A stretch of 63,568 nt of DNA, filler included, from Sluysia triapertura (Eukaryota): NCBI GenBank assembly GCA_046118255.1. It is 5 parts of 5 records of this genome, joined end to end, with 100 filler letters (N's around TTAATTAATTAA, not from the genome) between each part and the next. Parts side by side here need not be neighbours in the genome. Positions count along the whole stretch, not along the records: positions 39,364 to 52,273 come from JBJNIA010073054.1; 4 more parts are not named here. The stretch is one strand, 5' to 3'. The notes below the pieces were generated by a model. It saw only the letters and a list, made by a program, of their open reading frames with translations. It did no database searches and was not told the origin of the DNA. The position numbers and the translations under genes were made by a program. Shown in pieces: positions 11,261 to 60,696 of this stretch (the stretch's first letter is position 1; each line of letters begins with the position of its first letter).

Positions 11261-11451
11261 CTTCATAAACACAGTCAAATTCACGAATTCTCACACATCC
11301 CTAACATATACAAGCTCAATTTTTAAGTATAGCATCACATTAATGAATAACTTTGATTATTATTATTATTAATATTATATTACTATTATTAAATCAAATA
11401 AAACAATAAATTTATAAAAACTAATTTAAAATATAAATTTTCAATTCTCAC

Positions 11452-13855: not shown

Positions 13856-13900
13856 TAGTAAGAAAACAGAACAATTTAATTAATAATTTTAATTAATTTA

Positions 13901-18160: not shown

Positions 18161-18162
<2 letters not shown>

Positions 18163-18216
<54 letters not shown>
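18163..18216. repeat. (AAT)18 microsatellite
   Basis: Read directly from the sequence. Confidence 0.95.
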
Positions 18217-18217
<1 letters not shown>

Positions 18218-18406
18218 TGCTGTTGAATTTAAAAAATTATCACATAGTTTTCAACTTAATTAGACATAAGTACAATTCTTCCAAAAATAAGTATTAACGA
18301 TTTAGTTATTTTAGAATTAACGCTTTTGTATATAAGTTGATAAAGTTTTCAATATTTTACATACTATAAATACAAAGGCAAAATATTATACAATACAATA
18401 ATGAAC

Positions 18407-18559
18407 CTTATCTAAACCACTTGCTAAAATTAAGAATGCAGCTGGAGATTGATGTCCTCGAGATGTATTAGAACTTGGTTGATTATTACATTGAAGAACG
18501 TCTTCATATTCTTTAAATCCTCGATGAAATAGCACATCTTCTCTACGAATTGTTGATAT
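18407..18559 (-). CDS. M17 leucyl aminopeptidase, internal exon
   Basis: tattag|ISTIRREDVLFHRGFKEYEDVLQCNNQPSSNTSRGHQSPAAFLILASGLDK|gttcat. 153 nt, phase 0/0. Confidence 0.93.
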
Positions 18560-18562
18560 CTA

Positions 18563-18607
<45 letters not shown>

Positions 18608-18612
18608 CTAAC

Positions 18613-18699
18613 CTCAACTGGTTCAGCTAATAAATTTCCAGCTTCTTGTAATGATTTGGGAATATTTTTATCACAAGAAGGACCATTACCAAGAACTGC
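18613..18699 (-). CDS. M17 leucyl aminopeptidase, internal exon
   Basis: taacag|AVLGNGPSCDKNIPKSLQEAGNLLAEPVE|gttagg. 87 nt, phase 0/0. Confidence 0.92.
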
Positions 18700-19338
18700 C
18701 TGTTACAAAATTTAACAGTTAATTATAAAAATTCAATTGGCAATAATAAATAAAACAAAATCTGTGTCAATATTACAAAAAATATCAAAACCATTATTTA
18801 TTCTATGATCGAAAAATATTCAATATTTTCTGCATTGATAAAAGCTAATAGAAAATTTAAATTTACGTAGATATTTGAAATATAAAAAATCTGAATATTT
18901 GCTGAAACCTTGTGAAATTTTTCATTATCTAAATACCACTTATGACTAGTTTATTTTTCTAAGTTTTATGAAATTATATTCAAAACTCTTTCAACATTGT
19001 ATAATTAAATTGTCTAAAAGAAATTTCATAAAATACTAGTTTTATATCAAGAATTTAACAATTCTATTGAAGTTTATTAACTTTTTAGTTCACTGCTATA
19101 ATTGCGTTTGTAGGACATTATGTGTTTTACAGAAAAATAATAAATTACAATAGAAACTTCAAAAATATTACGAGTTAGTTTGTTATAAAACTCTATTTGA
19201 GATAAATTTATTTTTTAAATTTAATTATGACACGTAATGAATTAAATAGGTGATTGTGAAAAATGTATATTATAGTAATTGTCAATAATCTACAATAAGT
19301 GTTAAATTTTGTATATTTATAAATTCAAAACAATTAAC

Positions 19339-19422
19339 CGTATAATTAGGACCATATGCTCTGATGACATGACCAGTTAAAGTAGCCACTGTGAATAAAG
19401 ATGGATTTACAGAGTTGACAGC
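19339..19422 (-). CDS. M17 leucyl aminopeptidase, internal exon
   Basis: ttttag|AVNSVNPSLFTVATLTGHVIRAYGPNYT|gttaat. Contains the ATLTG motif. 84 nt. Confidence 0.94.
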
Positions 19423-19568
19423 CTAAAATTATAAATAATAAATTATTTTATTTATAACAAACAAAGAATGTTTATTCTGCATATTAATTCTTTAATATTT
19501 TAATTTATCATTACAATTATTTTCATTAATTACTATTTTAAATTATAAAACTATATTAAATAACTTAC

Positions 19569-19763
19569 CATTTCTTTAGCTTGGCACAATAAATCTGCCA
19601 TAACCATTCGGCCTTCGGCATCAGTGTTTCCAACACGCACACGAACATTAGCACGTGAGGTTATAATTTCATCAGCAACATACGATGAAGAGCCAAAACT
19701 ATTACGTACATAAGCTAATAATCCAACGACTTTAATTTTTTTCGGCTTTAATAATGATAATGC
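19569..19763 (-). CDS. M17 leucyl aminopeptidase, catalytic exon
   Basis: attcag|ALSLLKPKKIKVVGLLAYVRNSFGSSSYVADEIITSRANVRVRVGNTDAEGRMVMADLLCQAKEM|gtaagt. NTDAEGR is the cytosol aminopeptidase signature. 195 nt. Confidence 0.97.
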
Positions 19764-21689
19764 CTGAATAATTATGAAAATTTTAAAAACTATTTCTAAT
19801 TAACTTATAAAAATACAACTAAAAATAAATTAATTAATTATAAAATATTAAATTAATAAATTAATGTTCTTATATCATAAAATAAAAAATATAATTTCAA
19901 ACATAAAAATAATCTAAAATACCTTAGTAATTTTACAAGAAATATCTTAAGATTAACTATAATCAAAATAAATGATACAAATAAAAAGAGAGCGTAAATT
20001 TAAATTCACCATATTTAATTATCAAATCAAAAAGTATGGATCAAATATTAGTGTCAAAAAAACTGTGCCGAAATGAAATCAAGCAAAAACCAACAAATAA
20101 AAGTAAAATAGACGAATACGAATGCATATATAAAAATTATAATTAAATAAATATTACACTAGAAATTAAATAACACATAAATGAAATTTCCTATACTATA
20201 ATGATATATTTTATATTTTAACTATAGTAAAAAACAGTATAAAAATGACATCACAAAATTATTAAAAAACCAGACCGGATTTATTTAAAAATTCTTTTAT
20301 TACCGCTACTATTACCACATTTTGAAATTATCGGAGTTTTATATTAAATTTTTTTATCGAGTATTATTAAAAATAACAGTAAAAGCAGACAATTATTTTA
20401 ATAGGATTTAACTACTTATATCCAACGCGTATTTTTACATTGAATTAATATTATAAAGTATAAATTTCAACATTTATTCTCGAAATTGAATTTAACTGAT
20501 AAATGAACTATTATTCATTCGCTAAATATTTACTATTCTGGCCAACCTCATTTGTTTTTTCATTATTATTCTTTCATCTAAAATCACTTATTTAATTATG
20601 TTTTATCCCAATAACTGTACTATTATTGTACTGTTAATTGTAATTATATTGTTATTACATTTTTATAAATCTTAGCTACTGGATTAGTTTAAAGATTTAA
20701 ATTCGGCTTTCCATCAAAAACAATAAAAGCTGATATAGATAAAACTAACCCTCATGTGAAATAAAAGTTACGCATCAAATTTTAAAGTCAAATATCTTTG
20801 CTAAAAGGAAATAAATGTGCACTGAATTAAACGAATCAACTGCATTAAGCTTTTTTTAAGTTAATCTGTTATGTAAGGGAAGATGAAAACAAAACTTTAT
20901 TGTGAGTATTATATTATTAATGTAATATGTAAATAATTAATATAATTATTGATTAATTTAATAATGCAAATAATTTTAATTTAATTTCGGAAAGTACTAA
21001 TTGTAAAAATACAATTAACTATTTCGTTCAATCTAATTTTAATTTATATTTAACATTAATCATCTCGATTTTATAATTTATCTGATACGAATAATTAATA
21101 TAATTGATTTTCCTAATTAACACAAATAAATAATATAATTTGATCGACATACGAATATAATCTTCAAAAAGCTCACACAACAAAGGAAAAAATTCCTAAA
21201 AACAAGTTTCACTTTATTGAATAGAAATCTTTCTCTGGAAAATTTACTGTCGATTTTGGCTAAAAAACCACCAACTAGATATAAATTTAAATTCTTCGAA
21301 ACAAAGAAAAATCTATTAATCTTTTTGAAATTCCAATTTTACAAGTTATCAGAAAGCTTTATTCACTCTCTTCTTATTTGGAATTTTCATGATTATGTCT
21401 CAGAATAAGTAAGCTTATTGTCAATAGGCTAAGAATTAATATTTTTTGCTTTAAAATCTAGGTAAAATCATCATTAAATTAAAAAATCAAAGCATTCGCC
21501 TGGATCAAAATCATTATTAAAATTATATTTTTATTATTCGAAGGAACAATCCTCGATAATTAATAATTGATATTTTATAATTAATATACATTTTTGTTTG
21601 TATATATTTTTTTCTGTAACGAATAAATTTATACATATTGTTAATTCTTTTCATTGAAAGTATCAAAAGTAGATTTAGAATAGAAAGAT

Positions 21690-21960
21690 ATACATAATAA
21701 GAAAAATAAAAGTAAGGATTGTAAAAAGGTAGTTAAATTGACATACACGAGTAAAGAGTACATAACTTTAAAAGTAAAGTGGTAGTTGTTAATCCGTAAT
21801 TGTAAGATAAGGTACAAGAAAGTAAAAATACTGACCCTTGTTAACTACATTGCTGCAAGATTTAAGGTATTCCTGATTTGCCTGTAAATACGTCTTTCTC
21901 TTAATATAAATCGTATGTCACAGGTGGACCCGTACGATTTAATAATTTCACAATTGTTCA
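21690..21960 (+). mobile_element. LTR-like repeat fragment (family C) in a LAP intron
   Basis: Resembles 13550-13855, including the CAGGTGGACCC and AATTGTTC motifs. Confidence 0.45.
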
Positions 21961-23247
21961 GAATTAAAAGAGATTCGAACATTAACACAATATATTAAAA
22001 GACTTGTACATTTCTGCATCATAAAGATAAGAATTAACTTTCGTTTCTGAAATTAAACATTTTGAAACTAATTTCACCAGGAATAAGAATGTTTGACTTT
22101 TCTTCAGAAAATTTGTTAAAGATGTAAAATAATTGTCTGTAGTAACATTGTAATTTTTAAAAGTGATCCTGGTAAATCTTTCTATGTACTTCTTCCATCA
22201 TCAGTTTTTTATCGACTAATATGTAGCACGTAAGTAATACATTAATTGGTTTCATCATCAAAAATGATCCAAAATTTCATTCCATCTATGTCTAGTCTTG
22301 ATGAAATGTATTAAATCAATTGCAATATAAGGTAGTAAATATTCATTAATTTGCAAGTCTTGAATATGATTAATCGCAAAATAATTATATAAGAGAATTA
22401 ATACAAAACTTTTATCTTTTACTCTATAAGATTTGCTTTCCATATCGTCAATGTGATATATTGTAATGTATCGATAAATCTTTTACGTGACTTTGTCTTT
22501 CTAAATATTTAACTTCCAATCACTGTGCTTTACAATTATGATATCCCAAAATTTCTCTACAATAGACAAATTAAATACACTTTTCATATCAAGGACAGAA
22601 GTCTTCAATGATCATATTTTTCAATATGTTTACATACTTAAAAAAATCTTCAAGCATTTTAAACCTTTTTAAAGCTGTTTCAACAGAATATATTCATTTT
22701 CAAAAAGATATGAAACTAGATCATTCATTGAAAATATATTACAAATATGTATGAAACCAAGTTAAATAAATTCAACGTTTTTGTGAGAAAAGTAATATTC
22801 ATGTGAATCATAATGTAAAGTTATACTAAAATGTTCTGCTTTAATCAGAAATACATAAATCGTATAACGTTTGCATTATAGATACATCATTCATAAATTT
22901 GTGAACATCGATCAATTTTTCTTGTTCTAAATCAGAATATGAAATACCATTTATAGCAATCTTTTTTATTTTAAATTTCTTGCACATTAAAACAAAAAAT
23001 CAATAAAGATAACATATGCAAACAAAGAAGCTCTGAAAACAATCTTAATGACATTATTCTACTTATTTTCCAATGGCATTTCAATATGAAATGAATTATG
23101 CATAACATTTTGACTTTGATTATGAATAATTAATTTTACTTAACCAATTCATAAATTGTTTACATTTTTAATATAAATTTTAACTTGAATATAAAAAAAC
23201 GTTTTCAGCATTACATTTGACTAAATATATATATAAAGAAAAAATAC

Positions 23248-23438
23248 TTTGAAAAAACCCGTAATAGCTGCAGCACCGCATTTATCTCTATGCATACCAG
23301 CCATAATACCACCAGCTTTTACATCGGCTCCCCCAGTATCAAAAGTGATGCCTTTACCAACTAAGAATATAGTCTCATCGACAGCATCATTAGAATCATA
23401 TTCCAAGTTTATGACGACACCGTTATGTCTTTCAACAT
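23248..23438 (-). CDS. M17 leucyl aminopeptidase, first exon found (5' exons not found before the contig ends at 25563)
   Basis: aactag|xVERHNGVVINLEYDSNDAVDETIFLVGKGITFDTGGADVKAGGIMAGMHRDKCGAAAITGFFK|gtattt. Metal-binding K and D residues (GKGITFDTGG, RDKCGAA) are intact. Confidence 0.96.
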
Positions 23439-25146
23439 CTAGTTTTTATGCAATAACATTAATTATTTATTGATAATTATAATAAAAAATTGTAACAAAA
23501 TTATAGTACATTTCAAATTTAAAACTGAAAATGTGAATTTTAATTTATTTGTTTGTTAAACAAACTTAAAATAGTAGATAATTCTTGAACAGAATATTAT
23601 TTGATAATCACTTTATATAAACAGACAAATAATTCAATATATTACTACCTAACGTCCCAACATCCGAAAGACTAACGTTTTCGATCTTAAGAATTGGATA
23701 TAAAAATAAGATATGGAAAATAATAATGAATTTAATATAATGTAATAAAATTTATAATTTTATAAAATATTGACTGCATTAAAAGATTTTTATGGACATA
23801 ATCACATTTTTCAGTTTACTTAAAAATTTAAGTTTCAAAACAAATATTAAATCTACAAAAATCTATTAATTATATTAAATATTGATCCAAAATCTTAAAT
23901 ATCTTAATTTAGTCTCAAAAATGTTTAAACAGAATTTATTTAATACTTAAATAAGTTTTTATATATAATTAGTATATTCTATTATTTATATGTTTCATAT
24001 AAGATAACGTTGAAATAAATGGAAATGTGCCTGAGAAATGGCAGATGAAATAAGAGATTTCACTTAAAAAGTTCTAACATTTGACTAATTAATTTGTGTT
24101 TTCCAATGTTTCTATGGTTATACATAAGATGCTTGCTTGGTTTTTCCTTCACTTTTGATTCAAAGTGATTTATTGATGCCTACATTATTCACCAGTCCTG
24201 ATGGTTCCAATAACTCATGATGCATACCAAGTACAGAATGACCTTCATTTTCCTCTGATTCTGTCAGCTGACCTAATTTCTCTTTGATGGAGCAACATCA
24301 AAAACAAACACTAGTATACAACATTTTTCAAACAGATTTTTGATAAAATATTGTAATAAAATGAACAATATTTAAAAGTTATAAATTTTTAAACATTCAA
24401 ATGAAAATATTACTTCTTGCATTATTACAGACAATAAATTCAACATTGACTTATGACTCACCATATAATACTCATTTTTTACTAACTCTCTAATTATTTT
24501 AACATCTAAACTATAAACTAATTTTGTTTACGCACTTAAAAGAATATTTATAGGATTGTGCAATTTTATAATAAACACTTAAAATTTCATATTACGTGTT
24601 TAATTTTAAGTGTTTATGAAATTACATAACCCTGTAAATTGTTTCAAATAATCCATTAAAACTTAATTTTGAAATCCTACAAAAAACAGTGTACATGAGA
24701 AAGCTATAGCAGGTAAAATATCAAGTGTTGTTGCTTCAACTAATACTGTGGATTACTTGTCACCCTTAATTGTATCACACAATAATGCTAAAATATATAA
24801 AATCGTATTTTCATTCATACGTAATTGCCAAGAGCAAGAAAATAACTTGATACTCTCAGAAGAAATATACATTTTGATCGTGTTATGGCCGAACAAAGGT
24901 CGTGACTAATAATGAAGTTTTTTGCTTTTCAAATTGAAAATAAAATCTTAAATGAATATTTTGTTGCCCAACAATCAAAGTTTAATCTTTCGTAATATTA
25001 GGTAAACTGAGCTGACCGAAATTAATGTGACAATAATTTTGATGTAAGAGCATGAAACAAATAAGAATCTTATATTTTACAAAATACTCGGCCAATCAAG
25101 AATACAAACAGCGTAGCGTATAACATACTGCATGTTCGTCTTATAA

Positions 25147-25332
25147 CACATTCTTTGCGGGAAATGAGTTAACATAAATAGATTTTTCAAAATATTGATA
25201 ATTCAAACAAAAAATGTAATTATAATAAATAATCATAAGATAAAAAACTGAAAGATTTATTTTTTGCGCAAATGTCCAAAAATCGCTCGCTTTTCAGCTT
25301 GGATTGGAGCAAAATATCCCGCATAGAATGTG
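25147..25332. mobile_element. piggyBac-like MITE (186 bp)
   Basis: TIRs CACATTCTTTGCGGG and CCCGCATAGAATGTG (14/15 match), flanked by ATAA on the left and TTAA on the right. Confidence 0.7.
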
Positions 25333-25563
25333 TTAAAACTTAATTTTTGATTTAAGTGATGTTACATAGTGCTTAAAACATTATAAACAATTTTTCAAAT
25401 ATTGAAAGACGAATTCATATGATTACTACTACATTTCAGTAGACAATGAAAAAACATTTCATACCAGCAACAGAACTTTGAACAAAGTCCAAAGTTTACA
25501 TTGTATTTATATAAATGTAATTTTCAAATTAGTAAAATATGTATAATGCACTGAAATATGATG

Positions 25564-30914: not shown

Positions 30915-31950
30915 ACAGCATCTATCTGAACCAACCCCAATCCTACATGGAGTCAAACAGGGTTATCCGTTGTCCATGACGCTATTCTGTTTAGCAGTAT
31001 ATTTCTTGTTTCGACAACTCACCGACAGTGATACAATAAAAGTGAACAACCTGAACTTCCCTCCATACTTCCACATGCTAATGATATTGCTGTTATCAGC
31101 ACTAGCCTAGACAAACTGCAACATACTATCAATAAAATTATCGAATGTGCAAAATCCGCGAACTTGATTTTCCAAATGTTACTACTATAACAACGTTCAA
31201 TTCACTCTCTTCTGACTGGGAAGTTCCTATCCCCGCGTCAAGACAACGAAGCAGACACTTTATCTTGGCATCCCTTTTGGTGACATCAAACGCCAGTCCA
31301 GTGACGATCTATTGAATGAAAATATCAAGTTCACTGAATTAATAGGTCAATCGAACATGTATCGAAACTTTATTCAATTCCGACTCCTATTTCATCTGCG
31401 GAACCTGTATGTCAACGTTCAGATATTGAGAATGATTCATCCCATTCGCTGTGATGAAATATTTTGTGAAATACTGAAACAATATCTTCGTATCAGAAAC
31501 TATTCTCTAAACAGAAGCTTCTTCCGGGCACACAAAAACCATGGCGGACTTGGCTTAACCTCGGCGTACGACGACTACATGTGCATTCCACCTACTCAAC
31601 AGCCACATTCCCATTATATGCACTCTGGCTCATCACGAGGTCATAAAAGCAACCAATATCTCAATGAATAAAAGCATCGAAACCATAGCCCAAACACTAT
31701 GGCTCAATGGAGAACCTGTGGACAAACGTGCCAGACTACAAACCTGGTGGTCTAAGAACCACATTTCAATCAAGAACCTAGACGGAAATACAAAATCAAA
31801 GCTTCATTTGTCTACTCCAACGATTCCAATGATGTCCAGCTATCACTACAATCAGACATCCTCATAGTTAACCCCATCATTATTAGCTAATACCCCAAAA
31901 ACAAAATTGGCAAGTACCTCCATGAGTTAATTAGTACTTGCATTACGCAC
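30915..31950 (+). mobile_element. Non-LTR retrotransposon (LINE) reverse transcriptase fragment, degenerate
   Basis: SEPTPILHGVKQGYPLSMTLFCLAV (RT GVxQGxPLS), PHANDIAVIS (decayed YADD), YLGIPFG, and FFRAHKNHGGLGLTS (thumb GGLG). Frameshifted. Right boundary approximate. Confidence 0.88.
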
Positions 31951-35612: not shown

Positions 35613-35686
35613 GGGCTGATAGCTCAGTGGTAGAGCAATCGAACTGCGCAGCGATGGTCCTAAGTTCGAGATCCCTCGTCAGTCCA
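35613..35686 (+). tRNA. tRNA-like (Ala- or Cys-derived) pseudo-tRNA, second copy
   Basis: GGGCTGATAGCTCAGTGGTAGAGCAATCGAACTGCGCAGCGATGGTCCTAAGTTCGAGATCCCTCGTCAGTCCA, then TTTT. Same acceptor stem and flanks as 15530-15601; the T arm is degraded. Confidence 0.7.
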
Positions 35687-36074
35687 TTTTACGAAGTCTA
35701 ACATATCGTTATTTATCAAACTCTTCGGTGCGGCAAATCATTAAACTATTGTCAACAATTTTCTTCTTTACGTGGTATTTCTGTTCTACATTGGATCTCC
35801 ATGATAATAATTACGTAGCATTATCGTCTATGCTGTGAAAACTCATACAGTTAGGTCGTCTTGAGATTACTGATAAATAATTTTAAATAAAATTTAAGTT
35901 AATTAATGTAAGGTTTCCTATAAAATCACTTGTATTTACGCAGGCTTAAGTCCAGTAACAAATTGGATACACCAGAGAGATCTGATGCAACAAATTACTA
36001 TTATTAATTTTTTTGCTCAATTGATTTTTGTTCAAGAAGTTTATTTTATATTTCGATATATAATATTTTTGCCT

Positions 36075-36950
36075 TGTTAGATTGTCATCACGACCCTCAA
36101 AAATTTAAGTAAAATGCTTTAAAATTATTTAAAAATCAATTAAAATCATATAATTCTTTAAAATGGGTTTAAAAATAATTATTTTCCAAAAAATAAAATA
36201 AAATTTCGAAAAAATAAAATTAGCTTCTAAAAATAGAATATAAGCTTCTAGAATGTTCTAGAATATTCCATTGATTTTCATTGGCTGATGATTAATATAT
36301 AAACTAGCTTTAGTTTAATGAAAATCGCCATTTTAATCATCTCCATATTGAAAATTTAGGTATCATAAATTCAAGGATTTGCAGTTGTTTTCAAGATTTT
36401 CGAATTCCGTGTCAAAAGTAATTAATTTTTTATAAGTCAATGTCATTTTGTTCAATAACATTAATATCGTAAAATATACTCAACATCCAAATTTCTAATA
36501 AAATGTAAGGTTTTTCCGATATATTGAGGGCTAAAAAATACAGGAAAGATCATATTTAATCAAAAGTTAAAGACTGAAAATCAGTTTTAACTGTAATAAG
36601 CTTTTATTTATTTGAATTTTATTTTCCTCTTGCAATCTTTTAAGCCTTGTAATTTGTATTGTACAATTTTTTTATTTAATAAAGCTTCGAATTTTTAGTT
36701 TTGTTTGTGGTATTAATATTTGTAATTATACTTAATAAGTATTTGACCCTCAAGCATTAAGCTTGATTATAAGGTAATATTATTATTAAGGTAACTATTA
36801 ACTTATTTAGTTGCAGAACTACCAACTATGCGTTGTAAGACGTTTACTGTAACCGGACCATGTCAAAAATTATTAAACGTAGGTTAGGAGTTAGAAAAAC
36901 TACAGCACATTAGTCATTTGTATATTGTAATAATGTAATATTTATAAGAT
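36075..36950 (+). mobile_element. LTR-like repeat family A (solo-LTR-like copy)
   Basis: Starts TGTTAGATTGTCATCACGACCC, has ATTGGCTGATGATTAATATATAAAC at ~36280, and its 3' part matches 60575-60670. Right end approximate. Confidence 0.7.
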
Positions 36951-39363: not shown

Positions 39364-39431
39364 TTATGAGCGGGGCGGGTATTAGTACCCGTTTTATGTA
39401 CTGTCACTTAAGAATACCCGCTCATAATGTG
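39364..39431. mobile_element. Very small piggyBac-like MITE, left TIR cut by the contig edge
   Basis: TTATGAGCGGG...CCCGCTCATAATGTG|TTAA. The TIR resembles that of 25147-25332. Confidence 0.6.
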
Positions 39432-41759
39432 TTAATAATGTTAAAATCGCCTAATTAGCAGCAAATTATCTTCAATGTTATCACAATCTTCCATCAATTA
39501 GTAAAAAATTTGTATCACTATTGAAAATTCTTGTTAGTTGCTAGTACTATTTATACTATCGCGAAATTTTTAGTCTGATATATAATTATATTTATTTTGA
39601 TCAATAATTAATAATCATAATTTGTAATTTATAACATATTTCAATTCAATATAATATAATATTTACGAACTATTCTGATACATTAATTACAATTATTTGG
39701 ATTAATATTAATCTTAATTTGTAGTTTATAACATGTTATTTCAATATTTACTAACTACACAATAATAAATACTAGTTGTGATACATAATTTATAACGTTA
39801 TACAAATCACAATAAATACGATGTTAATTCAGTTCTACTATATAATAAATGAAATAGTTATTCTTAGTATGAATATTGTGATACTTAATCATGTTGGGTG
39901 GATGAACATTTTAAACATTTTTTGGGATTTTGATAAGTGGAACATTTTTGATTATATTTAATTAGAATATTATTTATAAAGCAACATATTTGTTGCTATA
40001 ATTATTTGATTTAAATATTATTTTTGATTTAAGTATTATTTGTATTATAAAAAAATTAAAAGTATAGAAAATTAATATGAAAATTTTGATTGGTAGTATA
40101 ACTAATTTTATTTTGTTTTAATGGATTATTATCGAAAATATCAACATTGTTTTAATGGATTATTATATCAACACTAAGTGCCTATATGGCGGATTTTAAT
40201 ATATAAACAAAATCTGGTATTACAAGATTTTTATTAACAATTATCGCAGTTTTTCAAGATGACATCCATGGTTCGGTAAAGTTCTTTTATTTAAGTTTTC
40301 TACAACTCTAATTTTAATTTAAGAGTTTCTTAAAATCCGACTCAAAATATATTAATATTTCCTGGATCGTAAAAATGCTATGTAAAGGTAAATCCAAAAC
40401 CTCAGCCTAAGAGATATTTCTTAAGGCCTAAAATCGTCATCATTATAATTATTCTTATTTTATTTTAAACATTGCATAATTATGGTAATATATTTATTAT
40501 GATTTGTTTTGAAATTTAACTTGAAATTGCTACATTTAGACAAATTTATTAATAGAATTAATTTATTTAAGCCTGATAACATTAGGAAATTTTGATTTAA
40601 TTATATCAATTTTAACTTTATGATTTACCAAACAAATGCAAAAATAAACACTTACTTGATTTATTTTACAAAAATTTTTAATTATATTTAGGTTTTGTTG
40701 TGGTCTAATCATTTTCTGAGTATGCCTGGCCATATAGAAAATTGAGGTCCTAAAAAAGGAAAATAATGTAAAAATCTAAATCGATTTATATAAGAGTGAG
40801 TAAAACTAAAATCTAATATTACTTCAAAGTTCTGTTGGTTTCTCCAGTCTACTGGTGATGATGTCATGCTTAATAATAAGGTACTGATCCTACGATGATG
40901 ATCATTGAGAAACTAAACAGGTTTCTAATTTCAAAGGCTTCGTGACCATAGATACAATTTCTGCCATATCGGGAACATTCACCATTCTGCATTCTTCCAT
41001 ATCATGTTTATAATATTTGCATTGATGAGCTTTTTTAGGCGAAGATATGTTGTTACTATATTAACGTTTTACATTGTCAGTCTTTACTTTTGTCATGTTT
41101 TTTACTAATGGTATAATTTTATTTGTGATCACATTGATAGGGACATGTATACTGTTATCTATTTTCATCACGATATAAATTGAAGCATTAAGATGGTTGG
41201 TATTGAATCGTTTTATTTGAAAGTCATGAGATATTGCAGTGAATTTTCTTATATCATCTTGTTTTGCGTTTTGTTTGTCTACTAATTTTAACATACAATT
41301 TGAAGGCAAAGTGCGAATTTCGATTCTATAATTTGTTCTTTAACGAATTCTAATATTTTAAATTCTAATCGATCGAATTGTACAATTAGCACTAATTTTA
41401 ACGAATTATAATCCTGTTAAGTTTGGTGCTGCTTGGTTGGACAATGGACAATACAACAGAATTTAACATTTATAATTAACAATCATTCTTAAATAATTTG
41501 TTTAACAATTATTTAATTTTATCTTTAATTGAAATATTAATTAACAATTATTTTATTATTTGAAGAAAGTTGAAAAAACAATTACTTTTATTTTTATTTA
41601 TTCAAAAATTTTTATTTGAAATATTAACAATTATTTTATTTTTATTTGAAAAAACAATTACTTTTATTTTTATTCAAGAAATTATTTTATCAACACTGCA
41701 ATAAAATCCAATATTCTTAAATAGAAATATTAAACTAATAATTTATTTAAATAAACTAA

Positions 41760-42490
41760 TTAATGAAAATTTTGTTCTAACGAAACAATTTCAAGATGGA
41801 GAATCGAAAAAGAGTATAAATAAATAAAATTTTAAATTAAAAGAGAAGTTTTTAGGAAATAAATCGAAAGTAGAAGAGTTCCAGAACCAATTTTTTGAAA
41901 TAAAATTTATTGTCAATGTCCATGCAGAAGTAATTTTTATAAAATTTCTAATTTTAAAATAATAGGGATTCTAAAATACTCACGTCACTTAATTTTTGCA
42001 TTTTCACCTAGACCGTAACTGGCTAGGTCAACTTTTGATAAAATCAGATAATTTTCAAACATCAACTAAGCCATAAGCTTAAGTTGACAAATTCGGTATT
42101 GATATTATAATAGTTCTCATTGTTTATTATATCATTGGTATACATATATAAGTTTTTTGTACACTAAAAGAATAGAAGTTAGTACTTGTTTTTTATTATT
42201 TGTAACAATTAAAATAATTTAAAATTTGACCAGACCCCTAAAAAGGCTGGTTTAAAGCCAAAAATAATTAAAATTTGACCAGACCGTAAAAAGGCTGGTT
42301 AACTAGTATTTCTCTTGTTGATCATTTACGGCAATTAGTAAATCTACTCCTTTAACTAGATATCAACGTCTACCAGCATAATTACCCCATTGCCTCAGCT
42401 AATTCTTCTAAGACTCAAATCTAATTAGAGTGTCTTCATTTTGATATAAATCATGCCTGATTAGTCGGACGGACTTACAGAGGCATTTTG
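41760..42490 (+). mobile_element. LTR-like repeat family D, left copy
   Basis: Colinear diverged blocks shared with 44750-45495: TCCATGC, TTTTCACYTAGAYCGTAACTGGCTARGTYAACTT, AGACCGTAAAAGGCT, TCTTCTAA, GGAC..., ATTTTGC. Ends approximate. Confidence 0.65.
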
Positions 42491-43284
42491 CATTTTAAGA
42501 GAAAATCTTGTAATCCAAAAATTCACGTTTAGGTAGCATAGTTTCCATAAACAATTTCTTTATGCGGAAATAAATTCAAAAATAGATATAAGTTCTTAAA
42601 AGTATCACCGTAAACTTCTAATTTTTTACAACAGTGTTAAGTATTATACTCTAAATATTCAGTTTAATACAATTTCAATAAACCGTAAAGTAGAATTATC
42701 TAATAAACACAATTAAATTTTAATTGTAAATTGTAAAATTAATTTGTTACTGTGAAATTAAAAGTTATTTTTATTTTTTGAGATTACTATGATGATTGGA
42801 CGTGATTGGATAGCCAATCAAGCAACAAGTGTACAAAATACTATTTTTACTCTGTAAATAATAAGTAATGAAAGTAAGTCAGTCCATGATTGGGCGTCCA
42901 GTGAGATGAGGCAAAACATAAAACAGAAAGACAATTAATTGGACGTCCAATCAATTGAAATAATCGACTTAGTAACTGTCACCAGTTGACAGTTTAATAT
43001 AATATAGTAACTTAGTTTAATGAACAGTCAACTGTTGAAGACCAAACTAAATAAATTAATTTGTAAAAAGATAATAATATATAATATTAATGGTAAATAA
43101 TACTGTTAAATAATAATAATTTTAGTGAATAAAATATAATAATAGTAACAAAAAAAACAAAAATAAAAACATAAATTTCATCTTTTATTTCTTATATTGT
43201 GAAGACGATCTTCCTTTTAATTATTCTGTTTCTAGACATTTAAATTCCTTAAAAAATGATTTATAATGTAATAAGTGTAATAAT

Positions 43285-43458
43285 TGTGATAATTGTAATA
43301 AATACGGGCACTCTACAAGAAACTTCGTAAAGTTAAAACAGAATATGTTTAGTCAGGATATCCCTAAAGTAAGGGGCCCTCAACAACAAAGATATCAAAG
43401 CCCTAATAGGAAAGTAAGGTTTAATGATAATAAAAACGACAATTATAAAATCAAATAG
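43285..43458 (+). mobile_element. gag C-terminal fragment (zinc knuckle), same family as 8162-9160
   Basis: CDNCNKYGHSTRNFVKLKQNMFSQDIPKVRGPQQQRYQSPNRKVRFNDN compared with CDNCN*K*HYARDCRKLRQEVFTQDFTKVCGP*QQRYQNSNRKVSFNDN at 9014-9160. Confidence 0.85.
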
Positions 43459-43606
43459 ATTACAATGAATATGAAGATCAATACCAATATAGAGAAGAAT
43501 ATGAAGAACCTAGAAGAAACAGGAAGCATAACTAGGAACAAAGATGAGAATTTAGTAGCGAAAAAGATGAATACTGAAAATTAATAACAGATGAAGAAAA
43601 TAATGC

Positions 43607-44095
43607 ATGGTAGGAGAATTTCATATCACTGGATTAGATTGTGATATAAATCGATTTAAGGACACTTAGGTTTGTCCTGAATCAAAACCAGAGTTAGAAT
43701 AAAAGACATGAAAATATTAAATGTTTACAAGGAAGGAAATTTAATCACAGCTTTGGTTAGAGAATGTTTAGTCAAAAGATCTATAGTCATATGGTATTGT
43801 GGACAGCATAGCCATTCATCAATTATTGATATTTCTAATGTATTAAAACCATTTAAGATATTACCCAATAATTGTCGTGATGCTTTCGAAACTGGATACA
43901 TAAATCTAAATGAGAGATAAACTTAAAATTAAAAATAATGCAAAATTAATTTATAATGTAAGAACCCCAGGTACTTGCGAAAGGGGTTCAATAGTGTACG
44001 AAGGGAAAATTTATAATAATGTAGTGGCGCAAGAAACATATGTTGTAAGTTTAAAATCCTTCAATTAAAGTTTCGATCTAGAAAAGGAACAATGA
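43607..44095 (+). mobile_element. Degenerate envelope glycoprotein fragment, chuvirus-G/herpes-gB-like (class III fusion) type
   Basis: MVGEFHITGLD...VCPESKPE; MKILNVYKEGNLITALVRECLVKRSIVIWYCGQHSHSSIIDISNVLKPFKILPNNCRDAFETGYINL; after a +1 shift LKIKNNAKLIYNVRTPGTCERGSIVYEGKIYNNVVAQETYVVSLKSF. The order C-x9-YCGxHSHxS, CRxxxETG, GxC...NVVxQ matches chuvirus-type glycoproteins as I recall them. Confidence 0.75.
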
Positions 44096-44749
44096 TGTCG
44101 CGACCATTTTGTAAAAGTAATCAAACGTTAATATTCAACAAAATTTTCCTTAGTAAACACAATAAAAATACGATTCTCAAAATTAAACTTGTAATCGAAA
44201 ATTTATGCTCTAGAAATGTCTATAAATAATTCAAAAAATGATTCACAAAATAACGTAATTAATGACTTGTTCTAATTTCATAAATACTTATTAACACTAT
44301 TTATATTATTTACTTATTTCGCGTTGGCATTAAAACATTGATACATGACTAATTTGTGCGTGATACTAGATATGATTAATTTTTGCTAAACTACTTTTGA
44401 ATTTGTACTTGATAATAAGATTTTAGTAATCCTTTAATATAATTATTAACATAATAATTATTAATATAAGATAATTTCTTTTAATAATATAATTATATAA
44501 TACAGTGAGATCGTAATTTAACATTAACATGTACTTGTGAATTTAACATTAACACTTTATTTTTACTTGGTATTACATTTATTTTATTGGTTTTATTATA
44601 ATTATTTTATTATTGGTATTAAATTATTTATTTTTATTATACTTAACAAATATAACAAATTAAATAAATAAACTTAAATTTTATTTATAAAAATTTAATA
44701 AATTAAATCAATTAAGTTTAATAAATTAAATTAAATTGTTAAATTAAAA

Positions 44750-45495
44750 AATGAGTTTTGTTTAAATGGATTATTTTTCAAAATATAGGACAATAAAGCA
44801 ATATTTTGTATATAAGAATGACAAAATTTTCAACAAACCATAGAGCAAAACAATATCAAAAAATCATCACAGAAAAATCCATTCAATTTTTTATATGTTC
44901 CATGCTAAAATAAGATTTTGTTTAATAAGTTTTACATTCTCACCGTAACCGGGAGAATTAAAATCTACTTCAAATATTTAATTTATTTTCACTTAGATCG
45001 TAACTGGCTAAGTTAACTTCTATATAAACTTTATTGCACTAAATCAATAAGAATTAAGTGATAAAAGTGAGTATCATTATTATATTGTACAAAATTCCTT
45101 CTTGGTCTTTGATAATATACATTCTAAGAGTTTGTGATTGTTTATTAAATAATAAAATATCATTTATTATCGCTAGACCGTAATAGGCTAGCTAAATATT
45201 ATAAAATATAAAGAAAGTTTTTACAATTAGACCGTAAAAGGCTAATTTAAAATACTGTTTATTTAAAGTTTATTTAATACTGTAAAAAGGCTAATTCAAA
45301 ATATATAAATTATAATTAATTTGAATAGCTAGTGGGTATTGCTAACGAGATTAATAACACAATAAAAGTATTCTCGTAATACGTGACTCTTCTAAAATCG
45401 AATTACATTACTTCTTAAAAGCCTAATAGACCGCCTTCGACCAGATACAAGACGTTTCTGTTAGGTGGACTCGCCTCAAAAGTTATATTTTGCAA
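44750..45495 (+). mobile_element. LTR-like repeat family D, right copy
   Basis: Diverged direct repeat of 41760-42490. Carries five bulged-A hairpins (one degenerate) and the AGGTGGACTCG motif at ~45463. Confidence 0.65.
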
Positions 45496-47014
45496 GTAGA
45501 TAAGATTAAAATCTTCGCAATACTTTTAATAAAGTTAATAATTAATATAATACAATAATAATTGAGATATTAAAATACTAAACTAATAAGTTAAAAACCA
45601 TTTTCTTTATTACATAATTACAATTTATATTATTTACATATGCATATACATTAGTAATTTTATGATAACTATTTGAATTTATTACCATTCAGAATAAAAA
45701 TATAACAGATAAAAAACCACTAATACATTTAGGTAATAAAATCAAAATTATATTATAAAAAATTAACATATAAGATCAATTGGAAAAAACTATAAAATCA
45801 AAAGACCACCAATTTAATTTTAGTGGTTGTTTTGTATTTTTTATGATTATTTGGTTTAATGATAATGGGCAATATATATTGCAAAGTGTGTGGGTTTGCT
45901 AAGAGTTTTAAGAACCATTCTTTATAATTACAAAACAAATTGAAATAACGTTTATTTAATTTCGAATAACTTATAATTACATAATTAAAATGCATTGTCT
46001 CTAAATTGTAAAAATAGTCAGATGTATAATTTTTAATTAATATTAAGATAACCTTAGACAGTTTCATAACAGTATTAATAAACAATGGGATAATGAAAAA
46101 ATAAGACAATAGAAATTTATAAAGGTAAAATATATAACACAAAGAATGAAAATTGTAAATTCTTACACAAAATACTTGAATCTGAAGCAAAGTCAACACA
46201 TGTTCAAGATCAGACCACGTTAAAGTCGAGAAACAGCAATGAATCAGTTAGATGTTGGATGCTAGATAGTAGTTCCTTAATCATGACGTTTTCGTTACCG
46301 ATACAATATACTGACGCATTTATTTTGTCTGATAGAGAATGACCAGTCGATAACCTGGATGAATTTGTTTTAGTGAGGTAACCTAAATTTGTCGATGCCT
46401 ATTTCTTTCGTTATTGATGTGCCTTTGATTGGGCAGTTGACTTTATCTAGGTTTACATTATTATACATAAGGATTGATTTGCCTTTACTAAATATAAACA
46501 TGACTTGATCTACGTTTACATTGTTAAACATCAAGATTGCTTTATCTTTATTTACATTAATAAATAGAAATAACTTTATCGTGAAGTTTAAAACTCAGTT
46601 TTTACTTCGTCGACATGAACAATTCCTAAGATAAAAAAGAATTATTCAAGCCACACAAAGTATTTCCAAATCCTCTATGGATAATCCTTTTATTTGCTGA
46701 TAGAATATTTGTTCAGAAATTGTTTTAACTACTATTTTAATTACACCAATACAAGAAATTTTGTTTTGAGTAATCTCTATAAGTGAATCAAATTTGCAAC
46801 ATTTTACGTTGCGGTATGTTAGAAAGTTATTAAAATTTTATTAGTATTATTATTATCCTGCAATTATTTTTCATTAATTGAGCAATATGTGGTTGGTACA
46901 GTGTTGCTAGCATTTGCTAGAGAATTACTTTAAAAGTGTAACAATGGTTTTAACTGCAAAACCTGTTAATAAGCAATGCTTCAGAGAGTTATTAAGATTG
47001 TTAAATTCATTTCA

Positions 47015-47890
47015 TTTAAAATGTTCTTTTAATTGCAACAGACGAAATTTAGATAAACATTGAACTAAAGCTGTTTTAATGATTCCTTTCAACAGTTTTG
47101 GTTCAACTATTTTAAACAATTGATCACGCCCGAATTAAGTCAGAACCAAGTCGGACAATAACTTTTTTAACTTATTTTTCGTGAGAATATTGTTTAATGT
47201 TTGCATGCATCGGTTCTCAATTCGATATGAAATATCAATAAATTCTTAATGTATGGTTTAAATGTCCTTTTCTGGCGTCGCTGATAAGCCCAAAACTCGA
47301 AATAAACATTGTTAAAATTTACCAGTTAATAAACGTATTACTTGATAAAAAGCATGATTTACAGTTGCTGTGAACCTCATCCGAAACTCTAAAGACAATA
47401 TCTTCACTAGGAAAAATTAACTATTACTTAATCAAAACTATTACTTAATACTTGAGCAGTTAAAAAGAAAACACGTTATATATATCCATAAATGAGTTCA
47501 TGAAACAACTGCAATAGAACCAATCATTTCAACTATTTCTGATGAATTTATTGATAAACAATATTGGCATGCTACCATTTGTTGATGTACCAATGGTGTA
47601 GTTGGAGCAACAATTATCAATTTACCTTTGGATATCAACGGTAAAAGTTAAACATAGAGATTGTTTCAAATTTGTTGATAAACAAATCGGAGTGTTTCTG
47701 AATAGACGTTGTTGAACAATTTGAAGTTGATAATTACGAATCATTTAATGAATAATCACATGTCTTTATTTGGTCATGATTATTTTCAGTTATTGGATAA
47801 GCAAGTGGTTTTTAGCGATGGTCCCGTTGAGGGCTCAATTGTTTTATTGTTTACTTGCACACTATTATCAAATAAAGTTGTTTGTTTCAT
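47015..47890 (-). pseudogene. FANCM: FANCM/Mph1 DEAH-helicase intronless pseudogene (N-terminal part)
   Basis: Minus strand with stops and shifts: MKQTTLFD...; IRNYQLQIVQQRLFRNTPICLSTNL; SMFNFYR*YP/GKLIIVAPTTPLVHQQMVACQ...IVEMIGS...HLW...FLLTAQVLSN; VSDEVH/ATVNHAFYQVIRLL...FRVLGLSATPEKDI; IKNLLIFHIELRTD; NIKQYSHENKL/KVIVRLGSDL; LSKFRLLQLKEHFK. These are colinear with FANCM (QxTLF N-terminal PIP-like motif, RDYQ, YNFYRWFP.GK...APTKPLV.QQ, DEAH, LSATPG, NL.I..IELR). Walker A GKT is deleted. Confidence 0.92.
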
Positions 47891-50800
47891 TAAAATTATT
47901 GAGATTGAACGTATATAGTATTACTCCAAATTTAAAACTAAACACATAACGAACAATTATTATTTAGCTCCATTCTAAACATAATTTCAAGCTTTAGCTT
48001 ATGAATTTGGTGATGGATTAATATCAGATGTGGTAATTGAGCTTGTAGGAACAATATTTATTTATGTAAATAAAACTTGAGATTGTATTGTAAACTGAGT
48101 GTGATAAGATAAAAGATATAAAAGTTATAAAAGGTAATATAAAGCTGAGAAAAGTTAAGAGTATTGAAATAATTAAAATGCGAGTTAGAATGGAAAGGAA
48201 AAAATAAAATGGAAGGTTAAGGAGATTTAAGGAACTTAATATAAAAATTTTATTCTTAAAATTATTTATTTTAAAGTTTATTTTGATGTTGCTTAGATTG
48301 TTACGTATTTATGTGACTGTGCAAATGTTTATTGTTTAGTATGATAAATGGAGAGGTTGAACCACCACATTTATATCGTGTAACTAGCAGATTTGTGGAT
48401 ATTGTTTATTATCAAATTATTCGTGGAGCTTGTTTGCAGAAACTATTCATTATCGAATTATCTGACATTGCTAGTTTGTCGAACAAAACCTATGTGTAAG
48501 TTTTACATGTAAGTTTTAGTCTGAGGTAAAAAATAAAATTAATAAATTCTAAATTTGGTAAATTATAAAATAGGTTATAAAATCGAAATACCTAGTTGAT
48601 TTATTTAAATTTACTCAATTAAAATTGATAAATTGAATTTCAGTGTTGATTCTCGTTTATATAAATCTGTATATAATTTTGCTATTTAATTCTGTTAATT
48701 AAAATTAATAATTTGAATTTTATTGTAATTTCTGTTTGTATATATATATGACATGTCATCTATTTACGTTGTAAAAACTATTTTGAAAGGCGTATTTGTG
48801 TTATGAATTGTTAAATTATTATATAATGAATATTATTAATAGATTATCATTAATAGATTAATAAAATATTAAATGAAATTATTTTTGAAATTATTTAAAT
48901 ATCAGCTTAAAAGAACACACAAAATTATCAGTTAACTAAGAATAAATTTAATTACTAATTTCTATTGTTAAAAATTTGGTTATAAATATTTAATTCTAAA
49001 TTCAATAATTAAAAAATTCCACATTGTGATTCATAATAAATCGAATATAAATAGGTAAGTATATTTTTCTAAAAAATCAATAATTAAAAATTTTAAAGAC
49101 AGTAGTAAAATTGTTAGTTAGAAAATTCAGATACCTTTTTCCATTGATATTACAGATAAGGTTTTTTCACGATTTAGAACGTGAATATAAAATCATCTTA
49201 AATTCTGGATTAGTTTTTGGTAACTTTTTAAAGTAATTACACATGAAATTTAATTCAAATTCATTTTATAACAATTATTATTATAGAGATAATAATTGAA
49301 TAAATTGCATATTTAGATACATCTTACAATAATTATTATAAGACTGCCTTATATAAAATTTTGCACTTTTAAAATCTTCTAAATTTTGTAATTCACTTTT
49401 TTGATCCCTTTAAAATGGATCGATTAGTAAAATAATTTCTATATAGTTTTAAAGTATTTTAAAATTGTTGCACTATTTTGAGTAATCGTTGGTGTATAAT
49501 ACCGAACTATAAAATCAATTTTCTTTTCACAAGTTCTGTTTAAATAGAACTTCAGTAAACTACCTTTTCGTAATTAATTTCGCTGTATAGCGGAACTCTG
49601 ATCATTGATAAAGTTAAGGTTATAAACGTTTAATCTTGCATAAGCAGAATCAGAATATTTAAGAATTCCTAACATAATTTAGGAAATAGGAACTCAGAAT
49701 GAAGTACAAGTCACACAGTTCATAAAAAATTACATTAAATGTATAATTAATCGGCCTCTTAAGTTCTTTTTGTTAGAAAATTTATCTTGGATAAAATCCT
49801 ACGAACTAGCCGTAATTTGTAAGACTAGGATCGCAGGCGAACTTGTAACATACAACTTATTTATTGTTCAGGATAAACTTATGATTAATAAAAAACTAAA
49901 TTAATGATAAAAATTTCAATAAAATTTTGTTTAGTCCCACTTGTGTTGGTAAATAAACAAGGGTTGAAAATAGAGTAACGAAGTGAATTAAAATTTCCAA
50001 AGTTTTAATAAAGTGAATTAAAGTTTTGATAAAGTAAACAAGGCTTTACGTTATAACAAAAGCTTAAAGGATAAGTTGATAAAGTCTTCATATTCATTTT
50101 GTAAGTTTAAGAAAAAAACTTGCGATGGGCACGTTTGTTCAAGACCATAAACAAGTTTAGAACTAAATCCAAAATTTAAGCCTAAAATATAAACCTGAAA
50201 TTATGACGTATTTGACAAATGTGTGCAATATTATGTCAGCAGTTCAAAGTAGATTCGAGTTATAAAGATATAAATTGATTCTATAGTCATTTGAAGCATA
50301 ATCTAAACAAAAGTTATTATTAAGTAATCGTTAATTGTGGTTACAACTTTAACACCAAATATAAAGCTAATTTCATAAGTAGAAATCTATAAGTTATTTA
50401 TCACAATATTAAGATTATATTAATAAAATGCTACAAATTAATTACTTAATCTCAATTTTATTATGTTTATTATATAATTTAATATAATCTAGTATTATAA
50501 CTTCTATTCTGATAATTGAAGCTTCTAAAATTTATTTAACTGGTTCACAAACTGAGAAATTTTGACGTAAAAACGCGAAATTGAAGAGCAAAGGCACCTA
50601 ATCAATAAATTTTTGTAGAATTTCCACTTATCAATAACAAATCATGCATCATAAACTACTTAAATAATCCAGTTTAAGATTAAAATCAGTCTAATGTGTA
50701 TCAGTAAAAGTTAGAAAAATAGTAAATTTATATAATTCAAATCAAAATTGTTTATATATTGTAGAACATGAGAAATAGCAGTAGTGTGATCAAAATAAAA

Positions 50801-52273
50801 TATGGACAACATTTGAGTTTAATTACAAAAGTGAAAGCAACAAGCATACATTATACATTTTTGAAAATATTATACTTTAGAAAGGTCGTTTAAAATAAGT
50901 TCGCAACAAAATCAAATAATTTTCAATAAATGAAACTATTCTTAAAAAAGTTATTCAAAATGATAAATCTTAAGCATTTCTTCAAAGCATTAATAAGCAT
51001 ACATAAAATTAAATTTGAAGTGACATCAGTTTCTCTTAGCAGAGACGTGTATTAAATAGTAAAAACAGAGAAAATTCCGATTATAATTATAATCAATTTG
51101 GAAAATATAAACGTATTTCAATTCATTAAATAATTTAAATATAAATAAAATAACCTTCGATACTTTTGAATTAATACCTTCATTAATCAATCCTTGAAAA
51201 TATTTTGTGTTACAAAGCATATATATTGTTATGGGAATGGTTGTATATATAAAAAAACGAATTTGCTCAAATCTTATACTTGCCATAACAGGTTAATGTT
51301 ATTATAATTTTATAGTATATTAACAAATTACATGTTAATAAAGAACAACCATAAAATTTAATTACTTTAATTAATAAAACTTTCAATTATCATATTTTTA
51401 TATGATATATAACGAAAAGATACATTTTATGAAGCTTTAACTTTGCCTATTTAAAACAAAATGAAAATTTTTTAAAATGTTAAAAAACAATGTGATTAAT
51501 AGATTATAATTTTCTAGAATAAAATTAGATTTTGGAATAAATGAAATTAATTTTTTGAAATTATAAAAAAGTAGTTAATCTTCATAGTGATTGTGATTCG
51601 TAAATTTTTACTTACGAATATAAACCGTAGAACTCAGTTTATTCCTAAAGAGATAAAACTAATAAATTATTAAAATATTAAAATTTAATAAATATAAAAA
51701 TCTATTAAAATATTAAAACATTTTAATTTTCATCATTCTCGTTTATAAGCTTTAAATATCTGTTAATATATTATTGTACGTGTAATGCTCACATAATAAC
51801 TATTAAACCGAAAAACCTTAAATACATCTTTATTTCATTGTAATTTTCATTTGTTTCCTTTGTTTTTGGTTTAACTTTTAACGTCGGTTCAACTGTTAAT
51901 TTTCTGTTTCGTAGATTATATTCTTCATTTGGTGCTATTTTACAGCTGTTAGAATTTTTTCTTATTCCTAACAAATTGTCTGTAGGGTCAGTTCGCTTAG
52001 TATATACGCTTTATACCAAACTTGGAGACGTATTACTAAGTTTTTAGTAATTAGAATTTTAACTTAAAAAACTATGTAAACTAATCTTACAAATTAGTTA
52101 TAATTTTAAATTTATTTTTCACGACTGAATAAAATTGATCGGTTTGATTTATATTTTATTTATATTTCACAACCCTTTTATTAAGGTGTTGTTAAGATAA
52201 AAGAAGATTACACAACTCCCTTAATGAGATGTTGTATGAAAAAGTTGATTTTATATTTACACAACCCTTTTAT

Positions 52274-58140: not shown

Positions 58141-59922
58141 TTGTAAAATGTGTTGTTAAAACCCGTCTATTTATACTTAATTTCTTCCATTATAACGCCA
58201 TTTTTCAATTTTTGTAATACATTAATATATAGTGTAATTACCTTTTTAATATTATTTCATTTACACTATAGTTTGTTATTATTTTATAGTATATGTGTTA
58301 TTATTTTTCTCTCTTAATTTTAATTACTTACTTATTAGTTAATTACTTATTTTTATTCATTTATTGTTTATTATTATGTTACTACTTTTTGACTTAATTT
58401 TTAATTTATATAATATTTTTCTATTATATAATTTTTAATAATAATTTTATTGTTTTTAATGCAGTTTTTTGGTTTAATTAAATTTTGGATAATTTTGCCG
58501 ATATATTTTATTATTAATGAATAATCTTTACAAATGTTTACTTTACTTACATGTTAAATTTGATATAAACATTAAAAATTATTATTCATAATATTATTAT
58601 TATAATACTGCAATGCCAACCTGACATAAGAAAATGTGGAGAATTTACAACCATGAGAAGTAGTCTAGATCTAACGATATGGCAGCTGATTTGAGTGATA
58701 AATCAATGCGGCACTTCCAACAATAATTCCACTCGAATAATCCCAACTCGAATAAATACAAGCTGACACAACCAAAAGAAGATTCAAGATTCAAACAACG
58801 GGAAACAACCGAATAATTATTGAAAGCAAATCTGAATACTTCAACTTCAATCACTACCACTTGTATCAACATACTTAGCACAATCTCCAAACACACCGAA
58901 TCCGATGTATCTGAAGGTTAAAACTGATTCAACGATTACGAAAATCAGAACATCGAAATTATTACTTTAATAAATTCTAAAGTATCGAGAGGCGATTCCG
59001 ATTCTGATACTACCTTGATTAAGCATTGCAAATAATTTTTCTTTACTAGACATTATTTAAATTAGAAAAAGGAAAGTTAAGTTTATGGTTATAGAAATAA
59101 ATATAATGTTACAAAATGTTGTTTTAAAGAAATATGTTTATTGAAAAACACAAAGGGACTTATAACGTAAAGTGAATTAAGAACTTGTCGAATTTAATCA
59201 AAGTTAGTTCAATATTAAGATTTCTCTAATGTGTTAGATTCAAATTACTTTGTTTTAAATTTGTTATAATGATTTTGTTGTGTAATTTTTATGTTATTAG
59301 TACTATAATACAAAAAATAGAATAGAAATAGAATATATTTCCTTATATTGCAGTAAGCTAGTTTGCCATTAGCTCAGAAAAACCTAACGCCCTAAGAGTA
59401 ACTGCAAAAATAACAACAACAATAATAACACCTTTAAAGGTCATTAACTAAAACTTAAAACTTAAAAAAGACCTCTGAAATCTAAGTTGTTAATAAGTAC
59501 ATATGCGGTAATATATAGCACAGATATGCACAGTTAATCTTAGCATGTTAGCTTCAATCAAGCGAATTTTAACTGAATTAATTGAAGAAATCGGCAACAA
59601 GAAAAGACAAATGTTTTGCGATAAATAGAAAACATTAGTTTCTCGTTAATCACAAAGATTTAATTTGACACATATTGGTTTAACTAGAGATTTCTATCAA
59701 CAAAAACAATAAGTGACAATACAACACAGAAATGTTTATTAGAAAAGTGAAAAGTATGCCTGTTTTCGAATTTATATGTTTTAAAACGCGATTTAAAATC
59801 ATATTTAACTTTCATTTTATAATTTTTAAATAGTTTGTAAAATCGAAAATTAAAATTTCATTAATTATATTGTTAGAAATAAATATATTGCAATACATTT
59901 CTAAAAATAAAACTTATACATT

Positions 59923-60696
59923 TGTTAGGTTGTCATCGCAACCCTCTAAAATCATTGAAAATGCCATTAAATCATTTTAAAATCTTTAAAAACACTTTAA
60001 AAATATTTGATTTCCAAAAATAAAATTATTTTTCGAAAAAAGAAAATTCGCTCTAAAAACAGAATAAAAACTTCTAGAATGATAGAGAACATTCCATCGA
60101 TTCCTATTGGCTGATGACTAGTATATAAACTGGTGCATGTTTAGTGAAAACCGCCATTTTGTTCCTTATTCTATCATTTATTTTTGGGTTGCAATTAACA
60201 CTCAATATGGTGGCAATATTATTCGATCAGAACCCGCTTTCCATTCTATGTTTATCTTAAGTTATTTTTATTAAGGTGATACTCAACTTTACTCAACTTT
60301 ATTTTTAAAATTATAGTAAGTTTTCCTGATGTACTGAAGGACAAAATCCACTTAAATTTTATTTATAACAAAAGCAATGAAAGATTTAATTTTATTAGTT
60401 ATCTGTCTATTCTTTATATTATACATGAATTGTAAATTTTTAAATCTTTTTGTATTTTTTGAATAAACTTTCTGAGAGTTTATAAGTTTCATTATTTCAT
60501 TAGAATTAGAATTTTTAGACCCTAATTAAGGAGTATTGTTATTTTGATAACGTATTAGCTTATACAATTACCACATATGATCCTGCTCAAAAAATATTTT
60601 GCCGTAGGTTAAGTGTTAGAAAACCACAGCGCATTGGATTATGCATAGACATTGATATTGCAATAATATGATTATTAATATATTCCTATTATAACA
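59923..60696 (+). mobile_element. LTR-like repeat family A (most complete copy, TG...CA)
   Basis: TGTTAGGTTGTCATCGCAACCC ... ATTGGCTGATGACTAGTATATAAAC (~60106-60130) ... ATAACA. No clear target-site duplication. Confidence 0.7.

Follow-up and report, generated by a model that had tools for sequence, protein, structure and literature searches.

Between two related direct repeats in the genome of Sluysia triapertura, a fragment of a gag gene with a zinc-knuckle region is followed on the same strand by a fragment of a viral-type glycoprotein gene. The question that this locus raises is whether the two fragments are what is left of a single envelope-carrying retrotransposon and, if so, in which kind of host and with which gene order. 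The window that we analyzed is a stretch of 63,568 nucleotides, composed of five scaffolds of one assembly (GCA_046118255.1) with N spacers between them; the gag-env fragment and both repeats (A and B) share one of these scaffolds, of 12.9 kb (39364-52273). We read 43267-44110, with good confidence, as what is left of the interior of a dead Ty3/Gypsy element of the flatworm GAG-ENV-POL type (an errantivirus as Chary and Hayashi use the term); the repeats to its left and right are likely solo LTRs that inserted independently. The features are listed in Table 1.

Table 1. Features of the window, with positions counted along the whole stretch.
Feature	Position	Strand	Basis or remark
Host exon, Ras-family GTPase	206-529	+	Pfam
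Host exon, innexin	2305-2610	-	Pfam
Longer related gag, likewise broken	8162-9204	+	Other scaffold; basis for classifying the gag tail
Host exon, innexin	11441-11758	-	Pfam
Host exon, M17 leucyl aminopeptidase	19551-19799	-	Pfam
Repeat A, 1098 bp, likely solo LTR inside another repeat	41415-42512	.	TGT...GTA ends; ATCC at 41411-41414 and 42513-42516
Decayed 3' part of a gag of Ty3/Gypsy type, comprising the zinc-knuckle region and the basic tail behind it	about 43267-43468	+	Homology to 8999-9204
Acidic, non-hydrophobic linker from gag tail to env, likely gag tail or intergenic	43469-43603	+	Hydropathy
Likely first piece of env ectodomain, with internal stop	43604-43699	+	Position before the PF24664 piece and 'DC' motif; no Pfam match
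Main env piece, chuvirus/gB-type (class III) glycoprotein, N-terminal part; 79 aa without stop	43681-43917	+	PF24664
Third env piece, in another frame	43910-44110	+	By-eye match to Smed ENV; no Pfam match
Repeat B (1016 bp), probably a solo LTR from a subfamily related to that of A	44504-45519	.	AGT...GCA ends; ATAC at 44500-44503 and 45520-45523

The original prediction spoke of a flatworm-like host, and the host genes in the window bear this out. For one innexin exon (11444-11740), located on a scaffold other than that of the gag-env fragment, 39 candidate homologs were screened and four passed a threshold of E 1e-10. These four were all from Platyhelminthes (three tapeworms and one monogenean) and were 54-61% identical to the exon. 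As every innexin match was a flatworm protein, the host is likely a flatworm, and a planarian host would be compatible with the env match described below. The predicted type of element, a retrovirus-like lineage in such a host, is already in print for Schmidtea mediterranea, M. lignano and P. crozeri (PMC13524379).

The gag tail could be classified through a longer gag located on a different scaffold. The two shared 70% nucleotide identity between the tail (aligned over 43271-43468) and 8999-9204 (E 3e-20) and 61% amino acid identity across 41 residues, confirming the suggestion that the fragment belongs to the same family as the gag at 8162-9160. Taken by itself, the tail gave a weak zinc-knuckle match below the cutoff (PF16641, E 0.005), and its final knuckle position is not a Cys. 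The longer gag has one knuckle and gave no Pfam match above the cutoff (weak zf-CCHC, E 0.02); for a 126-aa piece of it (8357-8734), the two best ESM Atlas matches were PF03732 Retrotrans_gag clusters (0.95 and 0.94). This match of the related gag supports, indirectly, a Ty3/Gypsy type for the tail. Comparison of the gag piece with longer proteins gave a weak negative, with 0 of 148 candidates homologous. BEL/Pao gag proteins carry three knuckles, and an Anakin-like BEL/Pao identity was discarded on the single knuckle and the Retrotrans_gag match of the related gag.

Downstream of the linker, the env sequence is preserved in three pieces, split by frame breaks and interrupted by stops, which jointly represent roughly the first quarter of a gB-type glycoprotein. 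The motifs CRDAFETG and GTC...NVVAQ, with which the glycoprotein fragment had originally been described, are present on the plus strand within these pieces. The main piece matched the Pfam profile PF24664 (Monjiviricetes fusion glycoprotein) with an E-value of 7.3e-8 (31.3 bits, cutoff 27), over profile positions 62-121 of 653. In an ungapped comparison made by eye, and so carrying no E-value, 43717-43917 was identical to the ENV of Smed_errantivirus_2 at 27/67 residues and to that of Smed_errantivirus_1 at 25/67, with the Cys residues in register with both; ENV identity among the six Schmidtea pairs compared ranged from 32% to 64%. In the ENV/class III sequence file of PMC13524379, the motif VREC has two occurrences, both confined to Smed_errantivirus_1 and _2, in a search of aligned sequences where gaps could mask further cases. 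On the PF24664 match above cutoff and the by-eye likeness to Smed ENV, the env fragment is, judged by its sequence, of the chuvirus/gB type (class III), as had been proposed. Since this class of glycoprotein resembles both Chuviridae envelopes and herpes gB (PMC13524379), the name of the profile does not imply a recent capture from a chuvirus.

The first env piece contains a 'DC' motif, which we take to be a feature of gB-type glycoproteins, and its placement at the start of the ectodomain is presumptive. No signal peptide was recognizable before env in this decayed copy, where the maximum 12-residue hydropathy was 1.35 across three frames of 43330-43640. The third piece is, by eye, about six residues shorter than Schmidtea ENV near 43960-43970, and similarity stops near 44110-44190. 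The C-terminal part is absent, and nothing resembling a membrane anchor was seen downstream of the pieces. Wider searches were negative. Among longer proteins, 0 of 120 candidates were homologous to the env piece (a weak negative), and the ESM Atlas gave no usable match for it. In viral contigs a single locus came up, a phage-like contig in which 19 residues agreed by chance; 0 of 179 metagenome stretches matched, and no PDB sequence reached an E-value below 0.67. A 70-residue single-sequence model, which was weak (best pLDDT 68.8, the other four 36-50), had no match in BFVD or PDB at E ≤ 0.001.

The order of the two genes can be set against that of published elements. Env-carrying Ty3/Gypsy elements of Platyhelminthes have HSV/gB-type ENV only, in the order GAG-ENV-POL (Chary and Hayashi, PMC13524379). 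That study describes nine flatworm elements, six from S. mediterranea (with 45, 215, 3, 8, 1 and 1 intact copies), two from Prostheceraeus crozeri and one from Macrostomum lignano, together with ENV-POL matches in Dugesia japonica and Girardia tigrina; the published ENVs carry a signal peptide or a TM segment (PMC13524379). For nematode elements it cites Sacco et al. (2022), in the part available, and the accessible part of PMC8532177 adds nothing further on env. Given this published order, an intact element would be expected to have env next after gag, and pol would lie downstream of env. In the one copy found here, the gag tail immediately precedes env, with about 140 nt between them and a shared orientation. 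The original description had pol missing; placing it between gag and env presumes a gag-pol-env order and does not hold for elements of this kind, which are GAG-ENV-POL (PMC13524379).

Five motif patterns for RT, protease and integrase had no match in any of the six frames of the 12.9-kb scaffold (39364-52273), nor does that scaffold contain another long ORF. Because no pol or RT was seen, membership of Ty3/Gypsy rests on the gag and ENV likeness. The copy is truncated at either end, breaking off within env, and stops and frame breaks interrupt it; the three uninterrupted ORFs and near-identical LTR pair of an intact element are not present. As it has no pol, no recognizable signal peptide, little of gag and only about a quarter of env, the copy is predicted to make no functional protein and to be inert. 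Its ancestor, by analogy with the published family, would have had the order gag-env-pol. In an intact member, the particle would be built by gag, entry into other cells would depend on the gB-type ENV as a class III fusogen, and copying and integration of the RNA would fall to the pol encoded downstream. The transmission mechanism outside Drosophila is unknown, according to PMC13524379.

Assembled reads gave a view of the wider family. One public sequencing run (X1), which may be the source sample, contains the stretch; no RNA run was listed as containing it. Depth here is a sum over contigs that passed a filter at 80% likeness; it should not be taken for a copy number. In the four bins spanning 43321-44188 it was 13,751, 33,960, 58,826 and 18,005, and it dropped from 18,005 (43972-44188) to 64 in the next bin (44189-44405), with single listed contigs at a depth of about 17-27. 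This pattern fits a much-repeated family, with the match stopping where the env similarity ends. At the knuckle (43360-43363) depth was about 1,650, compared with 39,000-65,000 at several places in env, so that most copies of the one need not be accompanied by the other; this is the chief result speaking against a joint spread of gag and env. Over the bin 43321-43537 the average is 13,751 despite a start near 1,650, and therefore the high depth would begin within the gag tail or the linker. One 382-base X1 contig covers 43460-43841 without differences, so the join of linker to env is no assembly error in X1; this contig barely reaches the gag-like part, with which it shares about 9 bases.

We then considered the two repeats, originally described as diverged direct repeats of about 730 nt on one contig. 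Their homology and common scaffold were upheld and the length was not, the repeats measuring 1098 and 1016 bp. The homology is beyond chance, with a global score of 18.5 against -86 ± 21 (maximum -40) for 210 other stretches of the window; 634 of 1185 columns (54%) are identical, as are 68% of aligned pairs (null mean 62%, maximum 67%). That A and B might be the very old LTR pair of one LTR-gag-env-LTR element, from which pol was deleted, is highly improbable. This model would account for the presence of homologous direct repeats to the left and right of gag-env, and for outer flanks that agree at three of four letters (ATCC left of A and ATAC right of B). Each repeat, however, has its own exact 4-bp flanking duplication, ATCC/ATCC for A and ATAC/ATAC for B, with one end of each a single letter off TGT...CA. 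An end scan with 6 bases of slack recovered exactly those ends for A and for B, at a chance rate (duplication plus TG/CA-like ends) of 3.4% of 3000 random end pairs, and found no duplication flanking A and B taken together as one unit. Contigs of run X1 also join 41398 and 41406 to 42513, skipping A alone, which we read as other copies of the surrounding repeat without A; among the 15 of 140 joints listed, none crosses B. Neither a TGG-type primer site after A nor a purine-rich tract in front of B was present, and just 54% of the columns in the alignment of A with B are identical, yet env keeps open pieces of 79 and 52 codons. As each repeat has its own duplication, the two do not bracket gag-env as one element. 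More likely, each is a solo LTR, the two belonging to related subfamilies and having arrived as separate insertions, a possibility of which the original prediction had itself warned.

The remaining alternatives concern the gag-env junction. The gag tail and env could come from different sources, either two decayed elements or a chuvirus-derived insertion beside a Gypsy fragment, brought together by nesting in a repeat-rich region. The roughly 25-40 fold difference in depth between knuckle and env points this way, as do the related gag at 8162-9204, near which no env-like match was found and which has no env after it, and the naming of PF24664 for negative-strand RNA viruses. In addition, fragmentary Gypsy sequence beside a chuvirus-like glycoprotein, with capture unproven, is common in insects according to the available part of PMC10084718. 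We nevertheless regard separate sources as unlikely, as the pieces share strand and order and lie about 140 nt apart as in the published flatworm elements, the close motif match is a planarian retrotransposon ENV, and the high depth appears to start inside the gag tail or linker. Quite unlikely, in our view, is a high-copy non-autonomous family that retains the gag tail and env, lacks pol and is mobilized in trans. The very high summed depth over linker and env, the much lower depth over the knuckle, the lack of RT, protease or integrase motifs on the 12.9-kb scaffold and the lack of a signal peptide would agree with it. A copy that ends inside env, however, cannot show what came after, the relatives in print are autonomous elements, one of them present in as many as 215 intact copies, and the depth hinges on the likeness filter. 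The same low probability attaches to the corollary that the host carries a very high-copy pol-less family, running from the gag tail into a gB-type ectodomain without a signal peptide, as a non-autonomous passenger of GAG-ENV-POL elements that far outnumbers its autonomous partner. The decayed remnant of a GAG-ENV-POL element thus remains our preferred reading.

Several other sequences were noted in the window. Contig depth and joints indicate that the multi-copy repeat interrupted by A occupies about 40930-41410 and 42517-42670. The motif AGACCGTAA...GGCT, which may be an LTR enhancer or promoter element, occurs at least twice in A (42010-42295), where a third, diverged copy was seen by eye near 42232, and four times in B (44995-45290), with a further similar match at 15350. 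Between A and the gag tail, at 42790-42960, GACGT motifs accompany several CCAAT/ATTGG boxes, possibly as a promoter-like repeat. Short direct repeats with a 63-bp period were seen at 46438-46570.

On the scaffold 13050-25563, the plus-strand region 13880-15505 contains a 189-aa ORF with KRRLGRPRKK, presumably an AT-hook-like motif, followed by a broken frame ending in a strongly hydrophobic stretch (hydropathy 3.4) and 'AFDC'. This region, which had no Pfam match and no tblastn match to the env piece, could mark the beginning of another env-like gene that differs from the first. The broken plus-strand ORFs at 31216-31867, without a relevant Pfam match, resemble the C-terminal part of a non-LTR retrotransposon. 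Two tRNA-like stretches, 15530-15601 (minus strand) and 35613-35686 (plus strand), lie inside a 140-bp repeat pair of 87% identity and are likely tRNA-derived SINEs; these were the only Rfam matches in the window (RF00005), and ARAGORN found none. A dispersed repeat of about 240 bp occurs on several scaffolds (1956-2194, 10979-11095, 36074-36336 and 59921-60160; 76-90% identical). Low-stringency blastn was dominated by AT-rich noise.

For elements of this kind in flatworms, gag beside a gB-type env is the normal order and not a sign of pol deletion. Where related repeats surround such a fragment, their flanks need checking before an LTR pair is called. The copy described here is a fossil and provides no test of function; the data suggest that its family is, or formerly was, abundant in the host.

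Among known systems, Troyka was dropped, its elements having CG...CG ends, 3-bp duplications and no env in the portion of PMC12440569 available. Like Anakin of mosquitoes, the element would be an LTR retroelement with the same broad glycoprotein class, which the accessible text of PMC7642597 links to chuvirus G; unlike the gag-env fragment, whose related gag is a Retrotrans_gag with one knuckle, Anakin has a BEL/Pao backbone and an insect host (PMC7642597, same portion). The Jingchuvirales glycoprotein EVEs of arthropods and nematodes likewise comprise glycoprotein fragments beside fragmentary Gypsy LTR elements, whereas the fragment here resembles a planarian retrotransposon ENV, and the part of PMC10084718 available holds no flatworm case and no clear capture by Gypsy. 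Closest are Smed_errantivirus_1 and _2 ('Platyhelminthes C1a'). In contrast to these, the gag-env copy is truncated and broken, without pol, a recognizable signal peptide, TM segment or LTRs of its own. Like them, it comes from a host that is (here likely) a flatworm, has gag immediately followed by env in one orientation and belongs to a multi-copy family. Because ENV identity to these Schmidtea elements is only about 40%, the family is separate from them, and would add one more flatworm family to the published GAG-ENV-POL Ty3/Gypsy set.
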